This document shows positions 21,121 to 36,217 of a stretch of 64,000 nt of DNA, one piece after another; within the stretch, counting starts at the first letter, position 1; each line of letters opens with the position of its first letter. The DNA comes from Escherichia coli (GTDB lineage: Bacteria; Pseudomonadota; Gammaproteobacteria; Enterobacterales; Enterobacteriaceae). The stretch lies in assembly GCF_003334385.1 (NCBI RefSeq), contig NZ_QOWN01000016.1. The stretch is one strand, 5' to 3'. The notes beneath the pieces were generated by a model, which had not been told where the DNA came from, did not search any database, and saw only the letters and a program-made list of their open reading frames with translations. Made by a program: the position numbers and the translations under genes.

Positions 21121-22453
<1,333 letters not shown>

Positions 22454-22472: not shown

Positions 22473-22497
22473 ATTCTGCAGACACTGTCTGCAGAAT
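22473..22497. repeat. Palindromic element, CAGAC-N3-GTCTG family, copy 1 (extragenic, between nanQ and yhcG)
   Basis: ATTCTGCAGAC-act-GTCTGCAGAAT with perfect 11 bp arms; lies in the 59 bp gap between the two convergent genes. Confidence 0.8.
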
Positions 22498-22512: not shown

Positions 22513-23640
22513 TTAACGGCGTCTATAGCCTTCCTCTAGCACCGCCTGTGTTCGAACGAGTTCATCTGCGAGTCGTTTCTCATCAGGTAGTTGCATCTTA
22601 TATTCGCTTGCCAGAACGGTGTTAGGCAAACCTGCCAGAGCATAATGCGCTTCTCCGGCTCCTTTCTCTGCACAGAGAACCAGACCGATGGGCGGATTTT
22701 CATCCGGTAGCGTCCAGTGCTCTTTGGCGTAGTTGAGATACATATTCATCTGTCCGGCATCGCTATAGCTGAATTTGCCCACTTTTAGATCGACGATTAG
22801 CAGGCAGCGTAAACGGCGGTGGAAAAACAGCAGATCGACACGAAACCAGTTGTCATCAATGCGTAACCTTCGCTGCCGACCAACAAAGGCAAAATCATCC
22901 CCAAGTTCCAGCATGAAATCCATCAGGTGGTTGATCAGCGCCTCCTCAAAATCGGATTCTGAATATTCATCTTTCAATTCCAGAAATTCGAGCACAAAGG
23001 GATCGCGTATCGCCTGTTGCGGAAGAATATGCGTCTCGGCAGGAGCGTGTTGTTGCAGCATGGCTGATTTGTCATGTGACAGTAGTGTCCGCTCATAAAA
23101 CTGGGTCGCAATTTGCCGCTCTAGCTGGCGAACAGACCAGCCACAGCGGAGCGTCTCTTTTTCATAAAAGCTGCGGGCGTCAGCGTTTTTAACGGAAAGT
23201 AAACGGACGTAGGTGGACCTGGGCAAGGGGAAAGATTTGGCAGACAGCGTCTGCCAAATCTTTGCCGATGGGAATTCTGCAGACGGTGTCTGCGGAATTC
23301 CCAATGGTGTTAATTCGCCAGACATTGTCTGGCGAATTTCAACATGTTGAAAAAAGAGGTAAAAAAGCCTCATTTGGCGTAAGTTTTTTGCAGAGAACCC
23401 ACGCTTATACCTTAGACATAAATCCTTTGATAGTCGCTTGATTAGCTGCGCACCATACGCAGCCCTGGCCTCGCCACCTTGTTCAAATTCGACAATTCGT
23501 CGGCCAATTTCCTGGTACGTCGCGGTCATTAACGCGTTAACGCTACGTACCGTTTCCGTCCGGGCGCTATCGACCAGATGAATAATACCGTCGTGGATTT
23601 GCTGGTAGCCTGCTGTGGTTCCTTCTGAGAGCGATTCCAT
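22513..23640 (-). CDS. yhcG: YhcG, DUF1016-type protein with a predicted PDDEXK nuclease-like C-terminal region; function unknown
   Basis: 375 aa ORF convergent with nanQ; recognised as YhcG; the centre carries three in-frame 39 bp palindromic repeats (23231-23338). Confidence 0.8.
   Translation of the reverse strand: MESLSEGTTAGYQQIHDGIIHLVDSARTETVRSVNALMTATYQEIGRRIVEFEQGGEARAAYGAQLIKRLSKDLCLRYKRGFSAKNLRQMRLFYLFFQHVEIRQTMSGELTPLGIPQTPSAEFPSAKIWQTLSAKSFPLPRSTYVRLLSVKNADARSFYEKETLRCGWSVRQLERQIATQFYERTLLSHDKSAMLQQHAPAETHILPQQAIRDPFVLEFLELKDEYSESDFEEALINHLMDFMLELGDDFAFVGRQRRLRIDDNWFRVDLLFFHRRLRCLLIVDLKVGKFSYSDAGQMNMYLNYAKEHWTLPDENPPIGLVLCAEKGAGEAHYALAGLPNTVLASEYKMQLPDEKRLADELVRTQAVLEEGYRRR
23231..23338. 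repeat. Three tandem palindromic elements of the same family (copies 2-4), 39 bp period, inside the yhcG reading frame
   Basis: AAAGATTTGGCAGAC-agc-GTCTGCCAAATCTTT (perfect 15 bp arms), GGGAATTCTGCAGAC-ggt-GTCTGCGGAATTCCC (one mismatch), AATTCGCCAGAC-att-GTCTGGCGAATT (perfect 12 bp arms); centres 39 bp apart; the minus strand translates as ...RQTMSGELTPLGIPQTPSAEFPSAKIWQTLSAKSFP... within YhcG. Confidence 0.85.
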
Positions 23641-23824: not shown

Positions 23825-24541
23825 TCACAAGTAGACTACGCTTATCACAGCTTTCCCATCAAGTTCGATTTTTTCTGAACCGCCTAAATCATTCGCGATA
23901 GATGCGCTCACCTGAAGCGGTATAATGGCGTTCGTTACAGGAGTTGGGGTTGTTTCACCTGGTTTTACAAAGGTGTAATAATAGCTTTGATCGACTGCAA
24001 GCGGATAAGCGGTGAGCGTTTGCCATGCTCTTTTTTGCCCTGTTATGACGGCATCTGCACCTGCTATTGATACAGCTAACGTCTGGCTACCATTGCTGGC
24101 ACTAATGTTGTTGCTATCAATTAACACGGCATAACTACCGATATTTTTATTATCTTTTGTTTTCCCTAAGCCGAATAAGCGCGTTGTCTGGCTAATATAA
24201 CCTCCGCCATTTAAGGTATATTTTACACCACTCTGACCCCCACTATCTTTTCCGGTGGTCATACTATCCATTCGTGTATCACGAGCGGTAATCGCAATGC
24301 TGGTAGCGGATTCGCAAGTTATAGTCATATTAATATTACGTGTTCCAATCTGTGTGTAGTGCTGCGTTGAAAGTCTATTGACTGAATGACTACCGAAGTT
24401 AACAACTCCGCCGTTGCTTAGTATTGGAGTACAAGCTGCAGCTTCCAGAGTCACCTTAACGTCAATTGATACTCTATCAGCGGCTTGCGCTGACATGGCA
24501 AAAAAGGCACTTCCGGCAATCAGTAATTTTACATTGTTCAT
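23825..24541 (-). CDS. yhcF: Secreted fimbrial-like protein YhcF (DUF1120 type)
   Basis: 238 aa with signal peptide MNNVKLLIAGSAFFAMSAQA; paralogous pattern to GltF (GxCTP...ITC); last gene of the chaperone-usher operon. Confidence 0.8.
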   Translation of the reverse strand: MNNVKLLIAGSAFFAMSAQAADRVSIDVKVTLEAAACTPILSNGGVVNFGSHSVNRLSTQHYTQIGTRNINMTITCESATSIAITARDTRMDSMTTGKDSGGQSGVKYTLNGGGYISQTTRLFGLGKTKDNKNIGSYAVLIDSNNISASNGSQTLAVSIAGADAVITGQKRAWQTLTAYPLAVDQSYYYTFVKPGETTPTPVTNAIIPLQVSASIANDLGGSEKIELDGKAVISVVYL

Positions 24542-25089
24542 TTTGCCTCCACCAGGACCGTCAGATTGCCTGTAATATCTGTCATGTCGGTTAGTTCCCC
24601 TTCATCCTTAAAAGCTGGAGCCATTGTCAGTGTGAGGCTAACGCTTTTACCGCTATCAATTACCACTTCTTGACCATTTTGCATAAACACCAGCCAATTA
24701 TTGGGGGAAGTACTAATTGATGCTGTTCCTGTGCTGCCCGGATTGTCATTTTTGCCACTGGCTAACGCCAGGTCGAGATTGTTACTACCTGAAAATGCAT
24801 CGCTGGCGATCAGATTTAATGAACCATTCGGGCCAAATCCAAATCCGTTGTTGGAAATATTAGCGGTATTCAACTGAACACGAATATGAGCGTCCTGATC
24901 GCATTGCATTACCAGCGTGATTGTTCTGTCTGCTAATTGTGTTGTTTTACCCCGGTCAACTTGGCGCATGGCAGCACTTCGTTTGCCATAGTCGATATTT
25001 TGTATGCTACTGGAGATATTACACTCTGCCTGAGCGGCCATGGCGAAGTTCAGCAGCAGGCATCCTGTTATTATCCGTTTCATTGGCAC
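24538..25089 (-). CDS. yhcE: Secreted fimbrial-like protein YhcE (DUF1120 type), apparently intact
   Basis: 183 aa with a signal peptide; start overlaps the yhcD stop by 10 nt. Confidence 0.75.
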   Translation of the reverse strand: MPMKRIITGCLLLNFAMAAQAECNISSSIQNIDYGKRSAAMRQVDRGKTTQLADRTITLVMQCDQDAHIRVQLNTANISNNGFGFGPNGSLNLIASDAFSGSNNLDLALASGKNDNPGSTGTASISTSPNNWLVFMQNGQEVVIDSGKSVSLTLTMAPAFKDEGELTDMTDITGNLTVLVEAK

Positions 25090-27461
25090 TCTCCTGTTGC
25101 TGTCTCATAGAACACATCTTTTGGTGCATCTTCTGGGAATGTAAGGTGAATACGGCATGATTGCTGCTCATCTTTTATATCTAGCACCATGTCCGGTTTG
25201 ATGTTATTGAGGAATACAACACCGTCATCCACTGATGTTGTCAGATAGTTGCCTTCACTATCTTCAATCGCAACGCCTCTGGGCAGTTTTTTGCCGTCGG
25301 AAAGTGTGATATTGAGTAATGCACGGCGTTGTGTTATCGCACTGAATCCGACTTTCCCTACTGCACCACGGCCTTGTTTGATCATTTTTGTGCCGTTACC
25401 GATATCGACATTTTTTGGCAAGCTGGCGGTATCGATCTCAACTCCTGATGTTCGCCACGACTGGATTGATGGAATGACGGCATTACCCCGAAAATCTGTC
25501 CATACTGGGCCTGCCTGAGATGTAATTCTGACACCTGCAATATTGTTATCCATTTTTGCGATGGCGAAAGTGTCATTGATAGTCCACGGTGAAAAGGTCA
25601 CTCCCTGATCATGTACGGCAATACCACCTGACATCGTACCGTTGTAAGTACGGCTATCACTGCCGCTTGCTCCTGCGGCAAGGCTGACTTGGGTGTAATG
25701 GAGATTGGAACTGATACTGCCGTTCAAGCTCGTTTCACGTTCGTCGTGATCTCGTTCAGCATTCACATAGTAGGACATCTCATCTGAGACGACTCCCATG
25801 ACACCAGTACCATAGTGGGTTTTATGATCGTCATGGCGAGTATACAGTGTGGCGGTGTTTGATCTGCCAAATGGAATACTGATGTTGACGTAGAACAGAT
25901 CACCATCGTCTTCATTATTTTCTGAAGCACTAAGTTGATGCTGCCAGTTGACGGAAACCGTGGCGTGTTTGAACGCTTTGTTCCAGTTAATATTAAGGTT
26001 GCTTGAGTCATTGTCACCGTCGTAACTATATGTTTTATAGCCACTGATGTTGAAACCACCCAGAATGGAGTTAGACCAGTTTAAACCAAGCGCATAAGTG
26101 CTTTTAGTCGGATCGGTATAATCATCATCAATCGCTTCAGACAGTTCGCGATAATGGCGATCAGATCGAGTGAGGCTGGTTGTTAGCCCAAGTGAAAATG
26201 GGAGATTGTAGTTCGCGTCAAGACGATATTTCTGTCCTTGCAGTGAGTCTTTCGTATCCTGCGATGTACTAATTTGGCTGCTCACTGTTAAATCGGGCAG
26301 GGGAACCAGACTCGACCGGATTGATGCCGCCTGATAATTTTCTGCTACGATAACGCCGCCGTTCATTGCACTCCAGCGTGTCAGATTCCATCCGCTCGAT
26401 GCACTAATTACCCAAGGTGATTCGTCATAGTCATCGTCTACCCGCCCTATCGCGAAGCGATAACCCTGGAAGCTTTCTACATGCTGATTAAACAGGGTGG
26501 AGGGAACAATATAGTTGTGCGAACTACCGTCTGTTTCGACAACGGTGACATTAAGATCACTATTACCATTGCGAACAGGTACATCAGGGATAGTGAATGC
26601 GCCCGCAGGAACCAGAATGGAATGAATTAAAACTCCTTGTTGACGAATCTCGACACGAGCCTGAGAGGTGTTGGCTATACCAGTAACTTGCACACCACTG
26701 CCGCTGGTTTGCAATGCGTTGTCCGGTGCGATTTCGATACCGTAAATACTGGCTCCTTCCAACACGCTATTATTGAGGTTAACTTCACCTGCTCGCATGA
26801 GTGTTTTAAGATCTGTAAAGGTACGTTGAAGGTAGGTTGACGAGTTCTGGTTACTGAATGTGCCATTTGTTTGTGTAAGGAACTGATGGCTGCGTAACAT
26901 CCAGTCATTAATATTAATCCCGCCTTCAAGTGCAGCCTGGGAGTAGTCCGAACTCCCATTAGAAAATTCTGCACGGCTGCTCATCAGAGAGTAGTTTAGC
27001 AGCGCAGCTGTTCCACCAGTTGCTGCGTTTGTGAGATCCAACCCTATGGGAATGATCGCCTGTGGTGAAACGATAATATCTAACGCTTCCTGGTTAGGTA
27101 ATGGTGTGATTGTGGTACCCGGGTAGGACAATATATAGTCGTAACAGCCATTTTTTTCTTCAGAAGGAATTTTTAAACCGGCTTGTTGCAGAAATGCCTG
27201 ATCAAGACAAATGTCGCCATTTTCATCAAAGCGCGTAGCAATGTTGCCTTTTTTTTCGCCATTTACTGATACTATCAGTGAATATTCACCTGGCAAAAAA
27301 CGGGCTGAACGGGAAAAATAATGCGATATATTAGGATCTACACCTAGTGATTTTAATGTTTCCCGATCAAAATCAACAGCGGCAATCTCTATACCATCTG
27401 CATTGGCTGGGGGAGAAAAGGCAAAACCAATGGTGTAGGCCAGTAACGTTTTTTTTAACAT
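25080..27461 (-). CDS. yhcD: Outer-membrane fimbrial usher
   Basis: About 793 aa from MLKKTLLAYTIG (track ORF 799 aa); usher-like beta-barrel sequence with a C-terminal Cys pair. Confidence 0.88.
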   Translation of the reverse strand: MLKKTLLAYTIGFAFSPPANADGIEIAAVDFDRETLKSLGVDPNISHYFSRSARFLPGEYSLIVSVNGEKKGNIATRFDENGDICLDQAFLQQAGLKIPSEEKNGCYDYILSYPGTTITPLPNQEALDIIVSPQAIIPIGLDLTNAATGGTAALLNYSLMSSRAEFSNGSSDYSQAALEGGININDWMLRSHQFLTQTNGTFSNQNSSTYLQRTFTDLKTLMRAGEVNLNNSVLEGASIYGIEIAPDNALQTSGSGVQVTGIANTSQARVEIRQQGVLIHSILVPAGAFTIPDVPVRNGNSDLNVTVVETDGSSHNYIVPSTLFNQHVESFQGYRFAIGRVDDDYDESPWVISASSGWNLTRWSAMNGGVIVAENYQAASIRSSLVPLPDLTVSSQISTSQDTKDSLQGQKYRLDANYNLPFSLGLTTSLTRSDRHYRELSEAIDDDYTDPTKSTYALGLNWSNSILGGFNISGYKTYSYDGDNDSSNLNINWNKAFKHATVSVNWQHQLSASENNEDDGDLFYVNISIPFGRSNTATLYTRHDDHKTHYGTGVMGVVSDEMSYYVNAERDHDERETSLNGSISSNLHYTQVSLAAGASGSDSRTYNGTMSGGIAVHDQGVTFSPWTINDTFAIAKMDNNIAGVRITSQAGPVWTDFRGNAVIPSIQSWRTSGVEIDTASLPKNVDIGNGTKMIKQGRGAVGKVGFSAITQRRALLNITLSDGKKLPRGVAIEDSEGNYLTTSVDDGVVFLNNIKPDMVLDIKDEQQSCRIHLTFPEDAPKDVFYETATGECQ

Positions 27462-27481
27462 CCTTGTCGCTCCAGGCAAAG

Positions 27482-28156
27482 TTATTTTAAGTCAGTGACA
27501 TATTTATTACCGCGATAACCATATCGGCTGGCTGGGTAAAACTCGACTTTTGTATCCGTAGCGTTTGTTAATGCAGTAGTTGTACTGGTGTGTGGTAGAA
27601 AATAGGTCTTATTTATAGCCCCCGTTTTTCCTGAAGGGAGCGTTTTAAATTGTAAGGTCATACGAACGACATAATTACTGGGGTTGCTAATCTCAATTTG
27701 GTCGCCATTTTTACGCCATTCCAGGAATTTCCAGGTCTCTCGCTCTTCCGGCAGGGAAGCCGGGTGGATCAGTACAGGTAGATCCTGACGAATTGAAACA
27801 GTAACTCTGCTGCTCTTGTCATCTTTTGGTGGAATACCTTCGAACGTTACGCGTTTCAGCTCTTCTGATTGCAGAGGAACAGTCGCCTGAAGTAAAAATC
27901 GAACCTGTTGTACTTGACCGGCTTCAACACGAATAACGGGCTGAGTCGGGATTAAACGAATTGATTTATTGCTTTCAGGCAAATCAACAATGGTGGTGTA
28001 AAGCAATGAAGGATGATCATCTGTATTCTTAATATTAATACTAGCTTCACCACGCTTTTCATCAACCAGCAATACTGATGTTTCAGGAACCATCCCTGTG
28101 GCTAAGGTATTCATTGATGTTGTTATAAATACAGTGAATGTAATGTGTCTGAGCAT
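27482..28156 (-). CDS. yhcA: Periplasmic fimbrial chaperone (PapD-like)
   Basis: 224 aa with a signal peptide; 2 bp upstream of the usher gene. Confidence 0.88.
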   Translation of the reverse strand: MLRHITFTVFITTSMNTLATGMVPETSVLLVDEKRGEASINIKNTDDHPSLLYTTIVDLPESNKSIRLIPTQPVIRVEAGQVQQVRFLLQATVPLQSEELKRVTFEGIPPKDDKSSRVTVSIRQDLPVLIHPASLPEERETWKFLEWRKNGDQIEISNPSNYVVRMTLQFKTLPSGKTGAINKTYFLPHTSTTTALTNATDTKVEFYPASRYGYRGNKYVTDLK

Positions 28157-28327
28157 TTAAATTAAAACTCCTGTAATAATGATAAATAACGCAGAAACAT
28201 ATTGTTAATATATGTTATGCACTGTTTGCGATGAGATTGATTAAGACAGACCATGTCATAGGGCATAATCTGTCCGAGTTATAGCTAACTGGTTAATGCG
28301 TAAAAATAAAAACTGTATTACAAGTTC

Positions 28328-29092
28328 TTATAAATACTGAACGCTGATAGTGACGTTACCATCCAGTTTGATCGTTTCATCAGAACCAAGAATAGTATTG
28401 TCATTTACCGCAGCATCAATCAGTAACGGGAAGGTGACCGCTGTAATGGCAACAGGTGTCAGTTCCCCTGTTTTTGCAACAGAATAACCGCGCTCGATTG
28501 CTGAGCAACTTGTCAGCGAGCAGAATGCGCCATTAGATGAGGCTTTCCATGTGGGGGTCGCTGCTGACCAGTGGTCAGTTTGAATCAGGTCGACAGGAAT
28601 TTCACCTGTATCGTCCGCCGCGTGAATCCCACCATTAGACCTGTCAATACCAATGGATGCAGCGCCAATTTTTTGTCCATTAGGCGCAGAACCTAAACCA
28701 AAGGCGTTTTTCGTTCCCTTCATATCTACGAGAGTATCATAAGCTTTTTCAATATAGGATGTGTCGTTTAACGCTACAATGGTCGACTGACGGTTATCCT
28801 TGGAGGTTACAGCAATTAGCGTTGGTGCTGTGCAGGTTATATTTAATGTGCTGTTTTTGCGGCCCAGTTGAACCAGTTTATTACTTTTACCGGTCGGATT
28901 CAGCGCACTGTTATGATGTTTCCCATAGTCAACAATGCCGCCGCCCGTAACAACTGGGGTACATGCACCAGGGGTATACTCGCCGATGATAGTTAATTCT
29001 GTATCAGTTGAATCTGTTGCCATGGCACTGAATGCTGCAACAGAAAGTGCTGCACAAATAGCAGCTGTTGTGAGGTTCTTTTTGAAAAACAT
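28328..29092 (-). CDS. gltF: Secreted fimbrial-like protein GltF (DUF1120 type), probable first subunit of the chaperone-usher operon
   Basis: 254 aa with signal peptide MFFKKNLTTAAICAALSVAAFSAMA; paralogous to YhcF. Confidence 0.85.
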   Translation of the reverse strand: MFFKKNLTTAAICAALSVAAFSAMATDSTDTELTIIGEYTPGACTPVVTGGGIVDYGKHHNSALNPTGKSNKLVQLGRKNSTLNITCTAPTLIAVTSKDNRQSTIVALNDTSYIEKAYDTLVDMKGTKNAFGLGSAPNGQKIGAASIGIDRSNGGIHAADDTGEIPVDLIQTDHWSAATPTWKASSNGAFCSLTSCSAIERGYSVAKTGELTPVAITAVTFPLLIDAAVNDNTILGSDETIKLDGNVTISVQYL

Positions 29093-29611
29093 ATGAACAT
29101 ATCCTTAATAACAAATTTATTTTTTAAAATAAAAAGCTGAAGCAGTATATATATCTGTTTGTGAATGTAAATAAATAACTCGTTCAGAAATAGCCAACTT
29201 GCTGGGATGTATTTATTTAATGAATTTTATAGTTACGATCATGTGAATAATAAGGTGCTGGTGAGGTGGTTTGTGGTGATAATTATTCATTACATGAATG
29301 TTTGCGCTGAAAAATAGGAAAATATATAGATAATTAAGGATAATATATTGGTTTTTTATATTCATATTTTGTATATTAATATCGAGACAATTTACATGGA
29401 ATGAAAAGACTGAATAGCTTGCAGAATCGGTATTGTCAGAGGTGTTAACAAGTAATTGAGACGGATTGTAAATGAGAAATTGCTTGATGTGCTTCACTCA
29501 TCAGACTTGGTGAACAAAGCACAATTTATTGAAAATTATCCCTATTATAGGAAAGGTCAAACGCTCATGCCGCATTTGCCAGAAAACAACGCGCACTTCG
29601 TCAGTAATTTG

Positions 29612-29636
29612 ATTCGCCAGACACAGTCTGGCGAAT
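29612..29636. repeat. Palindromic element, CAGAC-N3-GTCTG family, copy 5 (extragenic, just downstream of gltD)
   Basis: ATTCGCCAGAC-aca-GTCTGGCGAAT with perfect 11 bp arms; arms identical to intragenic copy 4. Confidence 0.8.
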
Positions 29637-29651
29637 TCATTGTTACCTCGC

Positions 29652-31082
<1,431 letters not shown>

Positions 31083-34000
31083 TTACTGCGCCTGCACGCG
31101 CAACTCAGCTGCGCTACGACTACGGTGACCCAGCAGTGCTTTTACATCACTGGACTTCGGTTTAACCAGCGCAAATTTAGTGGCGAAGGTTGACCAGTTC
31201 GCCAGAATCTCTTCACCGCGCTGAGAGCCGGTATGCTGCACATGCTCGGTGATAAGACCACGCAGATGCTCTTCATGGATCGCCAGAGCGTCAACGCTTA
31301 AGACCTCGACCAGTTCCGGGTTAACGCGTTTGCGGAAATCGCCGCTTTCATCGAGAACGTAAGCGAAACCGCCGGTCATGCCCGCACCGAAGTTAACGCC
31401 GGTTTTACCCAGAATGCAGACGATACCACCCGTCATATATTCACAACCGTTGTCGCCAATGCCTTCTACCACGGTGATAGCACCGGAGTTACGCACGCCG
31501 AAACGTTCACCCGCGCGGCCTGCGGCATACAGACGACCACCGGTCGCGCCATACAGGCAGGTGTTGCCGATAATGCTTGCTTCATGGCTGCGGAAGGCGG
31601 AACCAACCGGAGGACGAATGGCGATTAAGCCGCCCGCCATGCCTTTACCGACATAGTCGTTGGCATCACCGGTCAGGTACAGTTCCACGCCGCCCGCGTT
31701 CCACACGCCGAAGCTCTGGCCTGCGGTGCCGTTGAAGTACGCTTTGATAGGATCGGCTGCCAGCCCCTGATCGCCGTGCGTCTGGGCGATATAGCCTGAA
31801 AGCGACGCGCCGACAGAACGGTCGGTGTTGCGAATATCGAACCAGAAGGTTTTGCTCTGGCGCTCATCGACAAACGGTTTCGCCTGTTGCAGCAACTGCG
31901 CGTTCAGCAGGCCGTTATCAAACGGCGGGTTGTTTTCGGTGCAGTAGAGTGCCTTACCTGGATGCGGTTCGGCAGTCTCCAGCAGCTTCGACAGCGCCAG
32001 CTTCTGCTGTTTGGCGGTGAAACCGTCCAGCTCTTTCAGCAGGTCGGTGCGACCAATCAGATCCACCAGACGTGTTACGCCAAGCTGTGCCATCAGCTCG
32101 CGGGTTTCACGGGCGATAAACTCAAAGTAATTCGTCACCTTGAATGGCAGGCCGTGATAGTGGTTCTTACGCAGTTTGTCATCCTGAGTTGCTACACCCG
32201 TTGCGCAGTTGTTCAGATGGCAAATACGTAGATATTTACAGCCGAGCGCCACCATCGGGCCAGTGCCGAAGCCGAAGCTTTCTGCGCCGAGAATCGCCGC
32301 CTTGATGATATCGACACCCGTTTTCAGGCCGCCATCGACCTGCAAACGGATCTTGTGACGCAAGCCGTTAGCAACCAGCGCCTGCTGGGTTTCAACAAGC
32401 CCCAGCTCCCACGGACAGCCTGCGTATTTCACCGATGAAAGCGGACTTGCGCCGGTGCCGCCGTCATAGCCTGCGATGGTGATCAAGTCCGCATAAGCTT
32501 TTGCCACGCCAGTCGCGATGGTGCCTACTCCCGGTTCGGAAACCAGCTTCACGGAGATCATCGCTTTCGGGTTAACCTGCTTGAGGTCGAAAATGAGCTG
32601 CGCTAAGTCCTCGATAGAGTAGATATCGTGGTGCGGCGGCGGGGAGATCAGCGTCACTCCGGGCACCGAATAGCGCAGTTTGGCGATGTAAGGCGTGACT
32701 TTATCACCCGGCAACTGACCGCCTTCGCCTGGCTTCGCGCCCTGGGCGACTTTAATCTGAATGACGTCGGCATTGACCAGATACGCCGGAGTAACCCCAA
32801 AGCGACCGGAAGCCACCTGCTTGATGCGCGACACTTTGTTGGTGCCGTAGCGCGCCGGGTCTTCGCCGCCTTCACCGGAGTTCGAATTACCGCCGATGCT
32901 GTTCATCGCTTCCGCCAGCGCCTCGTGGGCTTCCGGGCTTAACGCGCCGATAGACATCGCGGCGGTATCAAAGCGTTTAAACAGTTCGCTTGCCGGTTCA
33001 ACATCAGCAATGTTGACCGCGTTTTCACCCGGCGTAATTGCCAGCAGATCGCGCAGCGTGGTTGCCGGACGCTCATTAACCAGCTTCGCGTATTCCTGAT
33101 AGTCGCTGTACTCGCCGCTTTGTACCGCTTGTTGCAGCGTGCGCACCACGTCCGGGTTGTAGGCGTGGTATTCGCCGCCGTGGACGTATTTCAGCAGACC
33201 GCCCTGGCTGATGGGCTTACGCGCCAGCCAGGCACGTTTCGACAGATTCAGCAGATCCTGCTGGAAGTCTTCAAAGCTTGCTCCACCAATGCGGCTGACC
33301 GCCCCCTGGAAGCACAGGCCCACTACATCATCGTGTAGACCGACCGCTTCAAACAGTTTCGAGCAGCGGTAAGAGGCGATGGTGGAGATGCCCATTTTGG
33401 ACATGATTTTGTACAAGCCTTTGTTGATGCCGTTACGGTAGTTGAGCATCACGGTACGATAATCTTTGGCAATCGCATGGGTGTCTACCAGGCGGCCCAG
33501 CGTTTCATAGGCAAGGTATGGATAAATAGCCGTCGCGCCGAAGCCCAGCAACACGGCGAAGTGGTGCGGATCGCGGGCGCTGGCGGTTTCGACGATGATG
33601 TTGGCATCGCAACGCAGGCTTTGATCGACCAGACGGGTCTGGATCGCGCCAACCGCCATCGGGGCTGGAACCGGCAGGCGATCTTTAGCGATATTCCGGT
33701 CGGAGAGCACCAGCAGCACGGTGCCGCTACGTACCATTTTTTCGGCTTTGTCGCACAGCTCTTTGACTGTCGCTTCGAGCGTGGTTTTAGTGACGTCAAA
33801 GGTGATATCCAGCGTATCTGCGCGGTAGTGCTCCTCTTTCATCGTCGTGAGCTGTTTGAAATCGGAGTAGAGCAGAATCGGCGATTTAAAGCTTAAACGG
33901 TGCGCCTGGCCCTCTGCTTCGCAAAAGACGTTCATTTCACGACCGATACTGGTGGCGAGCGACATAACATGCGCTTCACGCAGCGGGTCGATTGGCGGGT

Positions 34001-35543
34001 TAGTCACCTGGGCAAACTGCTGGCGGAAGTAGTCGTAAATAATGCGCGGCTGACTGGAGAGCACGGCGAATGGGGTATCATCGCCCATCGAACCGACCGC
34101 TTCCTGACCGTTTTCGCCCAGTACGCGAATTACGGAGTCCAGCTCTTCCGCGCTGTAGTTAAACTGTTTCTGGTAGCTGGCAAGCGTGTCGTCGTCCAGT
34201 TCGCGGCTACCCACTTCTTCATCGGGCAGATCTTCAAACGGTACCAGTCGGCGGACGTTTTTCTCCATCCACTCTTTATATGGATGGCGGCTTTTCAGAT
34301 CGTCATCGGTTTCTGCCGAGTGCAGAATACGCCCACTGCGGGTGTCGATAACCATCAGTTCGCCTGGCCCGACGCGGCCTTTTTCGACCACTTCGTCAGG
34401 CTGGTAATCCCAGATACCGACTTCAGAGGCGCAGGTGATGAGCTTATCTTTGGTGATGACGTAGCGCGCCGGACGCAGACCGTTACGGTCGAGGTTACAG
34501 GCGGCAAAACGACCGTCGGACATCACGATGCCCGCCGGGCCATCCCACGGCTCCATATGCATGGAGTTAAAGTCAAAGAAGGCACGCAGTTCCGGGTCCA
34601 TATCCGGGTTGTTCTGCCAGGCGGGTGGTACTAATAGACGCATGGCGCGGATGATATCCATCCCGCCTGCCAGCAGCAGTTCCAGCATGTTATCCATCGA
34701 ACTGGAGTCAGAGCCGGTTTCGTTGACGAACGGTGCGGCGTCGTGCAGGTCAGGGATAAGCGGTGTCTGGAATTTATAAGTACGCGCACGCGCCCATTGG
34801 CGGTTACCGGTGATGGTGTTGATTTCACCGTTATGCGCCAGATAGCGGAACGGTTGCGCCAGCGGCCAGCGCGGTACGGTGTTAGTGGAGAAGCGCTGGT
34901 GGAACAGGCAAATGGCCGATTCCAGACGCAGGTCCGCAAGATCCAGATAAAAGCGCGGCAGATCCGTCGGCATACACAGACCTTTATAGATGTTCACCAG
35001 ATTCGACAGGCTACAGACGTAGAAGTCTTTGTCGGCTTCGAGACGCTTTTCAATGCGGCGGCGGGCGATAAACAGACGGCGCTCCATATCGCGTGGACGC
35101 CAGCCTGCCGGGGCGTTCACAAAAATTTGCTCAATGCGTGGCAGAGAGGAGAGGGCGATTTCACCCAGCACGCCTTCGTTAGTGGGGACATCACGCCAGC
35201 CCACAATCGACAAGGTTTCGCGTTGCAGTTCTTCTTCAACGATGCGGCGTGCGGCAGCGGCGAGTTCAGGATCTTTATTCAGGAAGAGCATCCCGACAGC
35301 GTAGTTTTTTGCTAAACGCCAGCCGCGCTCCTGCGCAACGATGCGAAAAAAGCGATCCGGTTTTTGTAACAGCAAGCCGCAACCGTCGCCGGTTTTACCA
35401 TCGGCGAGAATCGCGCCACGGTGCTGCATGCGGGCCAGTGCGTGTATTGCAGTACGCACTACCTTGTGGCTAGGTTCGCCTTCTATGTGGGCGATCAGGC
35501 CGAAACCACAGTTATCCCTCTCAAGGGATTTATCGTACAACAT
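31083..35543 (-). CDS. gltB: Glutamate synthase (NADPH) large subunit
   Basis: 1486 aa from [16 protein letters not shown] (amidotransferase Cys after the propeptide); the track ORF extends 36 codons further to 35651, so the start is uncertain. Confidence 0.93.
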
Positions 35544-36217
35544 ATCGTGAACCTCCCCCAGGCTCTGCGGGAACCCCACTTCCGAACCGCTGCGCACGGG
35601 CACAGAAAGAGCGTGGCGACGGGGTTTGCGTGTCATACGCGCGCCTCGCATTCGCCCCCTTGTTGTCCTTTTCGCATCGGTTAATACGGTGAAGAGGGGA
35701 TCTCAATTACTGCATAAATATGATGAGCAGGCTGCTCATCCAGAAAGCTTCCAGCGGATTTCCAACTTATCGGGAAAGCTGATACAGGTCAAATGGCAAG
35801 CTTATTGGTACAGAAATGTGCTTTAGCGCAAAATTCTTTATTAAATGACTGAAATTAAAATGGATTTTATCTTTAAGGCTAAAAGGGAAGTCGTTAGAGA
35901 AACAGTCAATTCCTGACTGTCATAAAGGTGTGTTAACCCTTATCCTGCCTTGAACTGACGACAAAACCAGCATTTTATACTGCCTTAATTGGTAATGACG
36001 TTTCATGCTACTGTTTTTGCCTAAAATCCATCAGGAGATAAAAAAATCTGACACAAGATAAGCAAAAGTGATTTATGTGATTATGCATGAAATTTCGGTA
36101 ATTTTGATTGATTATGCAGTTGATAAAAGCAGGCCGGGACGATTGATCCAGGTCATCGCCGAATTGAGCTAAAAATGGCAGGCTTTGGCCTCTTTTCAAG
36201 GCGCGGTCTATCAGATT

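Follow-up and report, generated by a model that had tools for sequence, protein, structure and literature searches.

The gene-free gap between gltD and gltF in the 64-kb stretch of Escherichia coli DNA analyzed here (64,000 nucleotides; hereafter the window) is probably the 5' non-coding leader of an accessory beta-class chaperone-usher cassette, gltF-yhcADEF, that lies downstream of gltBD on the same strand. Sequence, distribution and synteny place gltF as the first subunit gene of this cryptic fimbrial cassette. The membership of gltF in the cassette for beta-class Yhc fimbriae is already published, and the conclusion reached in a preliminary description of this DNA is correct in substance but known. 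The present comparison adds the inverted arrangement of the cassette in other genera, a three-way polymorphism downstream of gltD within E. coli, strong divergence of alleles between conserved flanks, and a compositional hint of a Rho-type insulator.

Organization of the gltD-gltF locus

The genes and sequence elements of the locus are listed in Table 1. The gap runs from the gltD stop to the gltF start (29093-29651, 559 bp), which agrees with the spacer of about 560 bp in the preliminary description, and the boundaries of both genes are the same in the RefSeq annotation of an E. coli segment that is 100% identical. For comparison, gltB and gltD are 12 bp apart, yhcA and yhcD 20 bp, and both yhcD-yhcE and yhcE-yhcF have distances of -4 bp. 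These distances bear on an alternative that makes gltF the third member of a gltBDF operon, with the gltB promoter as its main source of transcription and the spacer as a long intercistronic region. gltF does lie on the same strand as gltD, but an untranslated gap of 559 bp is far from the short intercistronic distance of 12 bp between gltB and gltD. The gltF-yhcA region contains a 12-bp hairpin (28245-28275) and a promoter-like site (28208-28179), and an IS5 insertion in this region has been described in evolved K-12 lines (PMC8403718).

Table 1. Genes and sequence elements around the gltD-gltF spacer (positions in the window)
Feature	Position	Strand	Basis
gltB	31083-35651	minus	ORF list
gltD, glutamate synthase small subunit, last gene of the core gltBD unit	29652-31070	minus	ORF list and RefSeq
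Hairpin GAATTCGCCAGAC-TGT-GTCTGGCGAATC, 13 nt after the gltD stop	29611-29638	minus	11-nt perfect inverted repeat
gltD-proximal part of the spacer, 41% GC	29421-29610	minus	composition
C-rich, G-poor untranslated sense RNA, candidate Rho loading (rut) region	29180-29520	minus	composition
AT-rich core, 25.6% GC, putative cassette promoter and silencing region	29093-29420	minus	composition, 8 related leaders
Conserved block TATATTTTCCTATTTT	29311-29326	minus	common to L004 (61% GltF allele), partly L007
Inverted repeat ATTCAT-GTA-ATGAAT, possible regulator site	29285-29299	minus	partly kept in L004 and L007
Candidate sigma-70-like gltF promoter: -35 TTTACA, 16-nt spacer, -10 TATACT	29171-29166 (-35), 29149-29144 (-10)	minus	
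Shine-Dalgarno AAGGA, 9 nt before the gltF ATG	29102-29106	minus	sequence
gltF, secreted DUF1120 protein, putative beta-class (Yhc) fimbrial subunit	28328-29092	minus	
gltF-yhcA intergenic region, 171 bp, ~35% GC	28157-28327	minus	
yhcA, PapD-type periplasmic chaperone	27482-28156	minus	NCBIfam PRK09918, E 9e-96
yhcD, outer-membrane usher	25080-27479	minus	NCBIfam PRK15304, 1271 bits
yhcE, intact in this window	24538-25089	minus	ORF list and RefSeq
yhcF, second DUF1120 subunit, last gene of the cassette	23825-24541	minus	
yhcG	22513-23640	minus	
nanQ, convergent	21989-22453	plus	

Base composition and coding content of the spacer

The preliminary description called the spacer highly AT-rich and free of any credible gene, and both statements are borne out. 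Its GC content is 0.320, while the window averages 0.509, gltD 0.562 and gltF 0.455. No other place in the 64-kb stretch is as GC-poor over this length, and the spacer ranks in the lowest 0.23% among all 559-bp segments; all clusters below 36% GC in the window overlap the gltD-gltF gap. The composition is uneven, with 25.6% GC in the gltF-proximal 328 bp (29093-29420) and 41.1% in the gltD-proximal 231 bp (29421-29651). The AT runs quoted earlier are present in the AT-rich part (TTTTTTAAAATAAAAAG at 29120-29136 and ATATATAT at 29147-29154). These 328 bp make up a long stretch whose AT content far exceeds that of the genome, as is looked for in xenogeneic promoters, and the cassette as a whole has a GC content of 0.443 versus 0.569 for gltBD.

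The largest open reading frames in the spacer would encode 94 amino acids on the minus strand (29213-29497, GTG start) and 72 amino acids on the plus strand (29456-29674), and their existence is what speaks for an overlooked gene in the spacer, coding for a small protein or a small RNA. Neither ORF has a match in NCBIfam, and the homologous spacers of other alleles (the L004 and L008 leaders) contain no ORF conserved with these two; both were therefore rejected as genes. The 94-aa product is of low complexity, like translated AT-rich DNA. Furthermore, an Rfam scan of 27900-30000 at E<=1 returned no match, RefSeq has no feature under the spacer in any record listed, and comparison of the spacer with yhcG and the other genes of the locus revealed no homology except a palindrome of 26-29 nt. 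A concealed gene is scarcely credible in light of these results.

GltF as a putative subunit of the Yhc fimbriae

The protein family by itself marks gltF as the leading subunit gene in a chaperone-usher cluster. GltF matches the Pfam family DUF1120 (E 1.8e-45), has a signal-peptide-like N-terminus, and is paralogous to YhcF (30% identity, E 5e-26). Its structure model resembles chaperone-usher pilins, which suggests that the first gene of the cluster encodes a secreted subunit with the pilin (incomplete Ig) fold, and a PDB sequence search with a GltF profile gave spurious matches only. The family match, the paralogy and the pilin-like model support the fimbrial-subunit character ascribed to GltF in the preliminary description, and the pilin-like nature of GltF, together with its kinship to YhcF, speaks against its being a third member of gltBDF. 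The remaining components of a chaperone-usher system are also encoded here: homologues of the usher YhcD carry PF13954, PF00577 and PF13953, and the adjoining gene encodes the PapD-type chaperone YhcA, whose homologues carry PF00345. In eight of eight loci from five genera, a gltF homologue is linked to and heads the cluster, in the order gltF-like gene(s), chaperone, usher, yhcE-like gene and yhcF-like gene.

The Yhc locus has reportedly been classed in the scheme of Nuccio and Baumler of 2007 and by Korea et al. in 2010. Several published surveys treat gltF in the same way. For example, gltF-yhcADEF is counted as one of 12 chaperone-usher operons in MG1655 (PMC8174762), phylogroup A strains are described as having a beta chaperone-usher locus whose putative subunits are GltF and YhcF (PMC5216030), and a comparison table for E. 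coli W includes gltF-yhcADEF as a chaperone-usher locus (PMC3032704).

Distribution of the cassette and its leader

Within E. coli, the spacer was found in 1237 of 5426 complete genomes (1148 of these matches are nearly full length, almost all with at least 99% identity), and only where gltF is or was present. K-12 strains match a 519-bp query from the spacer (29093-29611) with 100% identity. In another 946 of the 5426 genomes, Nissle 1917 among them, one hairpin separates gltD from convergent nanQ, and in 3139 yhcG, either intact or as a remnant, directly follows gltD. It follows from these counts that gltBD occurs without gltF in ~78% of E. coli genomes, the spacer and cassette being present in ~21-23% of the complete genomes. 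Strain RM14721 has kept half of the spacer beside an IS1 element, and the remainder was deleted by IS1. Cassette and leader behave as one unit, either both present or both missing in E. coli. The alternative of a gltBDF operon would lead one to expect conserved co-occurrence and co-orientation of gltF with gltBD, and neither was found.

In other Escherichia lineages the cassette occupies the same place in the same orientation, but as highly divergent alleles: the flanking gltBD DNA is ~94% identical compared with ~73% for the cassette DNA, GltF is 61% or 78% identical, and the leaders measure 449 and 342 bp at 30-31% GC. In Enterobacter mori, Kluyvera sp. and Pseudenterobacter timonensis the cassette also lies beside gltD but is inverted, with its last gene converging on gltD. 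The gene order in these three genera is one to three gltF-like genes, chaperone, usher, yhcE-like gene and yhcF-like gene, and the leaders, which face sspB, are 548, 518 and ~400 bp long, respectively (26-30% GC). E. hormaechei has a 268-bp leader after sspB. Hence, an AT-rich leader of 268-559 bp and 26-32% GC precedes the first gltF-like gene in all eight loci from five genera, whatever the orientation of the cassette or the neighboring gene. It should be noted that the taxonomic survey is thin, as a scan of genome contigs with GltF peptide patterns yielded two loci only.

The inverted cassettes of E. mori, Kluyvera and P. timonensis make co-transcription of the gltF homologue with gltBD impossible in those genera, and the persistence of a long AT-rich leader in them indicates that the leader travels with the 5' end of the cassette. 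The claim that gltF heads the yhc operon rather than being a third gene of gltBDF thus holds for cassette membership in evolutionary terms, given the absence of gltF from ~78% of E. coli genomes and the inversion elsewhere; whether every gltBD transcript ends before gltF is a separate matter, taken up below. The description of the operon as horizontally acquired is less certain, since the cassette flanks gltD in Escherichia, Enterobacter, Kluyvera and Pseudenterobacter alike, and its presence at the same locus across genera makes a recent acquisition doubtful. An old, often-lost and often-exchanged resident would fit this shared position at least as well as a recent import. A survey of Escherichia fimbriae lists the type as sporadic and does not decide between an ancient remnant and a recent acquisition (PMC3559732).

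The same variation could be read to mean that the spacer is non-functional debris of an insertion, inversion or recombination hot spot downstream of gltD, containing a promoter at most. Spacer length does vary among alleles (342, 449 and 559 bp), IS1 has removed part of the spacer in RM14721, and the gltD-proximal 230 bp have no counterpart elsewhere, the palindrome excepted. As an account of the whole spacer this is quite improbable, given that a leader of this length and composition is kept in every one of the eight loci and that alleles with no more than ~73% identity between their cassettes still share conserved blocks. Junk DNA is possible for the gltD-proximal 230 bp and unlikely for the AT-rich core, which has been retained in five genera. 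The segment at 29421-29610, for which no counterpart apart from the palindrome was found in L004 or L007, is probably filler or boundary DNA.

Possible transcription into the spacer from gltBD

The hairpin beyond gltD has a predicted fold of -22.6 kcal/mol (z -3.6) and is followed by AAAUUACUGACG, so that in this allele it is without the U-tract of an intrinsic terminator; a promoter and terminator scan likewise reported no terminator-like site at the hairpin. Intrinsic termination at this point may therefore be weak, and some read-through is plausible. Allele L002, which lacks the cassette, has this hairpin too; there, A/U-rich arms flank it on either side, and it resembles a bidirectional terminator placed between gltD and nanQ. 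The hairpin in the window is likely the 3'-end structure of gltBD. It is also one of five copies of CAGACNNNGTCTG in the 64-kb window, where 0.02 would be expected.

Beyond the hairpin, the untranslated RNA is C-rich and G-poor (C/G 1.45 overall). In the candidate rut region the C/G ratio in 78-nt segments ranges from 1.6 to 6.3, compared with a window-wide 99th percentile of 2.29, and the region includes ATCACCACAAACCACCTCACCAGCACC at 29254-29280. Untranslated RNA that serves for Rho entry would be expected to have such a composition. The leaders of three Escherichia alleles have C/G ratios of 1.33-1.56, versus 0.68-0.97 for four leaders of other genera; in E. mori and Kluyvera sp., the upstream gene sspB has a canonical intrinsic terminator.

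Taken with the likely identity of the spacer as a cassette leader, these features are consistent with the following scenario. Most transcripts of gltBD would stop at the hairpin or a short way beyond it, and Rho would complete termination on the 340-nt untranslated C-rich, G-poor stretch. gltF would have a promoter of its own in the last ~100 bp of the leader (~45-80 nt before the ATG), for which TTTACA-16-TATACT is the best candidate. The 25.6%-GC core would silence this promoter by H-NS-type binding, in analogy to other cryptic fimbrial operons of E. coli, and minor read-through from the gltB promoter may account for the historical 'gltBDF operon' label.

The contrary view, that gltF is expressed chiefly as part of gltBDF, draws on the hairpin without a U-tract and on published reports. 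Castano et al. are said to have named gltF as a member of gltBDF and to have reported co-transcription in 1992. Goss et al., on the other side, reportedly found in 2001 no nitrogen phenotype upon deletion of gltF, and no gltF in several enterics. Some papers, along with the regulon databases, list gltBDF as a single operon, and regulatory papers still use the operon name (PMC1784095, PMC8403718, PMC2374795). In addition, gltD and gltF have similar fold changes in one microarray table (0.34 and 0.32; PMC3181261), which fits some co-transcription. Low-level read-through is plausible, given the hairpin without a U-tract and the parallel change of gltD and gltF on the array. Transcription of gltF mainly from the gltB promoter is rather unlikely, however, considering the length of the gap, the many gltBD-bearing genomes without gltF, the inverted cassettes, the pilin-like protein, and the C-rich, G-poor untranslated RNA, which favors Rho termination.

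The C-over-G bias, present in the Escherichia leaders and not in those of the other genera, raises a further and more specific reading, in which the Escherichia leader has been reshaped into an insulator composed of the U-tract-less hairpin, a Rho entry and an H-NS platform. In Escherichia, reshaping would have followed the arrival of the cassette behind gltBD on the same strand, leakage would place Yhc partly under the Lrp-dependent gltB promoter, and recombination would proceed at CAGACNNNGTCTG. These palindromes flank the cassette and are repeated inside yhcG, and recombination between them could have given rise to the three-way polymorphism. Taken as a whole, this combination is tentative and unlikely to be correct in full.

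Candidate promoter and possible silencing of gltF

The candidate gltF promoter (29171-29144) agrees with the sigma-70 consensus at 10 of 12 positions and would start transcription near 29137. The 61% allele L004 has a TTTACA-16-TACACT element at the aligned position, and the conserved block TTTATTTACAnTCAnAAACA comprises the -35 TTTACA followed 16 nt later by a -10 of the form TAnACT. A sigma-70 consensus scan found a number of promoter-like matches in the region that is not above the shuffled expectation; the element is therefore a mere candidate, with conservation across alleles as the sole argument for it. The K-12-type leader and that of L004 share few blocks, namely TATATTTTCCTATTTT, the inverted repeat listed in Table 1, TTTATTTACAnTCAnAAACA and the ribosome-binding region, whose AAGGA is kept in all aligned alleles.

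With regard to H-NS, the motif TCGATAAATT is uninformative and not enriched in the spacer: at <=2 mismatches there are two spacer matches (29321 and 29523), and the window as a whole has 77 versus 62 expected. Other regulators may act within the leader. A ChIP peak of CsiR presumably lies ~257 bp upstream of the gltF ATG, near position 29349 of the window, on U00096.2 coordinates, in which the spacer would span about 3,358,639-3,359,197. This peak, within the spacer, was assigned to gltF, and gltF was up 2.5-fold on CsiR induction (PMC5217608). gltF is also among the genes whose RNAP-occupied promoter overlaps the site of a newly characterized transcription factor (PMC6237786). Together, the two reports weakly favor independent control of gltF.

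The position of the candidate promoter also brings to mind a phase-variation switch, either an invertible promoter like fimS or a Dam/Lrp switch like that of pap, since a perfect 10-bp inverted repeat (TATCCTTAAT at 29100-29109 and ATTAAGGATA at 29333-29342) brackets a 223-bp segment containing the candidate (29110-29332). The invertible promoter was rejected because the repeat is at chance level (a comparable one occurs in 16% of shuffled spacers), none of 1150 genomes has an inverted junction, and the cassette is without a recombinase gene. The pap-like Dam switch was rejected because the spacer holds a single GATC, at 29237. A switch of either kind is thus very improbable.

Implications for annotation

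The result is mainly a matter of annotation, as gltF is still treated in places as a glutamate synthase operon gene or its regulator. Regulon models that place gltF under the Lrp, Nac or ArgR control of gltBD may be wrong or may report read-through. The comparative evidence supports a view already current in the fimbria literature and opens no new question.

Comparison with known systems

The locus can be compared with four known arrangements. The gltBDF operon model matches it in gene order and strand but differs in intergenic distance, phylogenetic distribution, protein family and orientation in other genera. The fimS element of type 1 fimbriae and the pap switch are likewise non-coding, measure a few hundred bp and precede the gene for a major subunit; unlike them, the yhc leader has no orientation variants among the 1150 genomes, no nearby recombinase and a single GATC. 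The beta-clade Yhc locus of K-12 and phylogroup A is this locus, identical in its five genes, in their order and in its place downstream of gltD. One difference from MG1655 is that yhcE, intact here, is disrupted there by IS5 (PMC5216030); the fiber itself is putative and known here from its genes.

The remaining comparison is with the cryptic chaperone-usher operons of K-12 (yad, yeh, ybg, yfc, yra, sfm and ycb). These are said to be silenced by H-NS, which Korea et al. reportedly showed in 2010 for cryptic chaperone-usher operons other than yhc. Like them, yhc has a long AT-rich region upstream of its first subunit gene, a GC content below that of its neighbors, and no known expression in the laboratory. 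Unlike theirs, the yhc leader abuts a strongly expressed core operon on the same strand, and it must therefore also handle incoming transcription from gltBD.

Arrangements downstream of gltD and a repeated palindrome

Among complete E. coli genomes, three arrangements are found downstream of gltD (loci L002, L003 and L001). Approximately 1150-1237 genomes carry the AT-rich spacer followed by gltF-yhcADEF and yhcG, 946 have gltD followed by a single hairpin and then nanQ, and in 3139 genomes gltD is followed directly by yhcG, which is frequently cut off by a transposase. The palindrome CAGACNNNGTCTG, whose arms are GAATTC-like, occurs five times in the window against 0.02 copies expected by chance, with every copy located at the gltD-yhcG-nanQ locus (see table). 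In the yhcG reading frame, its three copies translate into the repeated peptides IRQTMSGEL, IPQTPSAEF and IWQTLSAKS. Because these palindromes lie at or close to the breakpoints that separate the three arrangements, they may act as sites of recombination.

Insertion sequences are also present at this locus. E. coli RM14721 (L013 3248-4264) carries an IS1 in the spacer at approximately window position 29348, along with a deletion that extends from this IS1 through part of yhcG, and in other strains IS1 is found within gltF.

Features of the gltD-yhcG-nanQ locus (window coordinates)
Feature	Position	Description
CAGACNNNGTCTG palindrome, 3' of nanQ	22479-22491	
CAGACNNNGTCTG palindromes within yhcG coding sequence (n = 3)	23241-23253, 23280-23292, 23319-23331	
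gltF-yhcA intergenic region	28157-28327	171 bp, ~35% GC
Promoter-like site in gltF-yhcA intergenic region	28208-28179	
Hairpin in gltF-yhcA intergenic region	28245-28275	12 bp
CAGACNNNGTCTG palindrome, 3' of gltD	29618-29630	

Divergence and duplication within the cassette

In other Escherichia lineages (L004-L007), the cassette shares only ~73% DNA identity with window 23825-29092, compared to 90-94% for the flanking gltBD and nan genes. This divergence is mosaic, as demonstrated by the two alleles L004 (61% identity to the window in GltF, 86% in YhcF) and L007 (78% in GltF, 59% in YhcE). Such a mosaic of divergence between well-conserved flanks suggests allele exchange or diversifying selection at the cassette. 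In other genera the gltF-like gene is present in tandem copies, with three in Kluyvera (L010 9011-11724) and two each in Pseudenterobacter and E. hormaechei (L011, L012). The intergenic regions between the Kluyvera copies, each ~255 bp, are nearly the same as each other.

Candidate control regions

The gltF-yhcA intergenic region, which contains a hairpin and a promoter-like site, could be an attenuator or a second promoter for yhcADEF. A sigma-factor SELEX peak has been reported at the start of yhcA, and evolved K-12 lines have gained an IS5 in this intergenic region (PMC8403718).

The sense strand of the leader (window 29180-29520) is C-rich and G-poor only in Escherichia alleles, a comparison of three against four leaders and hence a small sample. 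The biased leaders are those of cassettes located after gltD on the same strand (the three Escherichia alleles), whereas the leaders of L008, L010, L011 and L012, where the cassette follows sspB, are without this bias. The region upstream of gltB (window 35652-36184) is likewise long and AT-rich (34-40% GC in 300-bp windows), in agreement with the large Lrp/IHF control region known for gltB.
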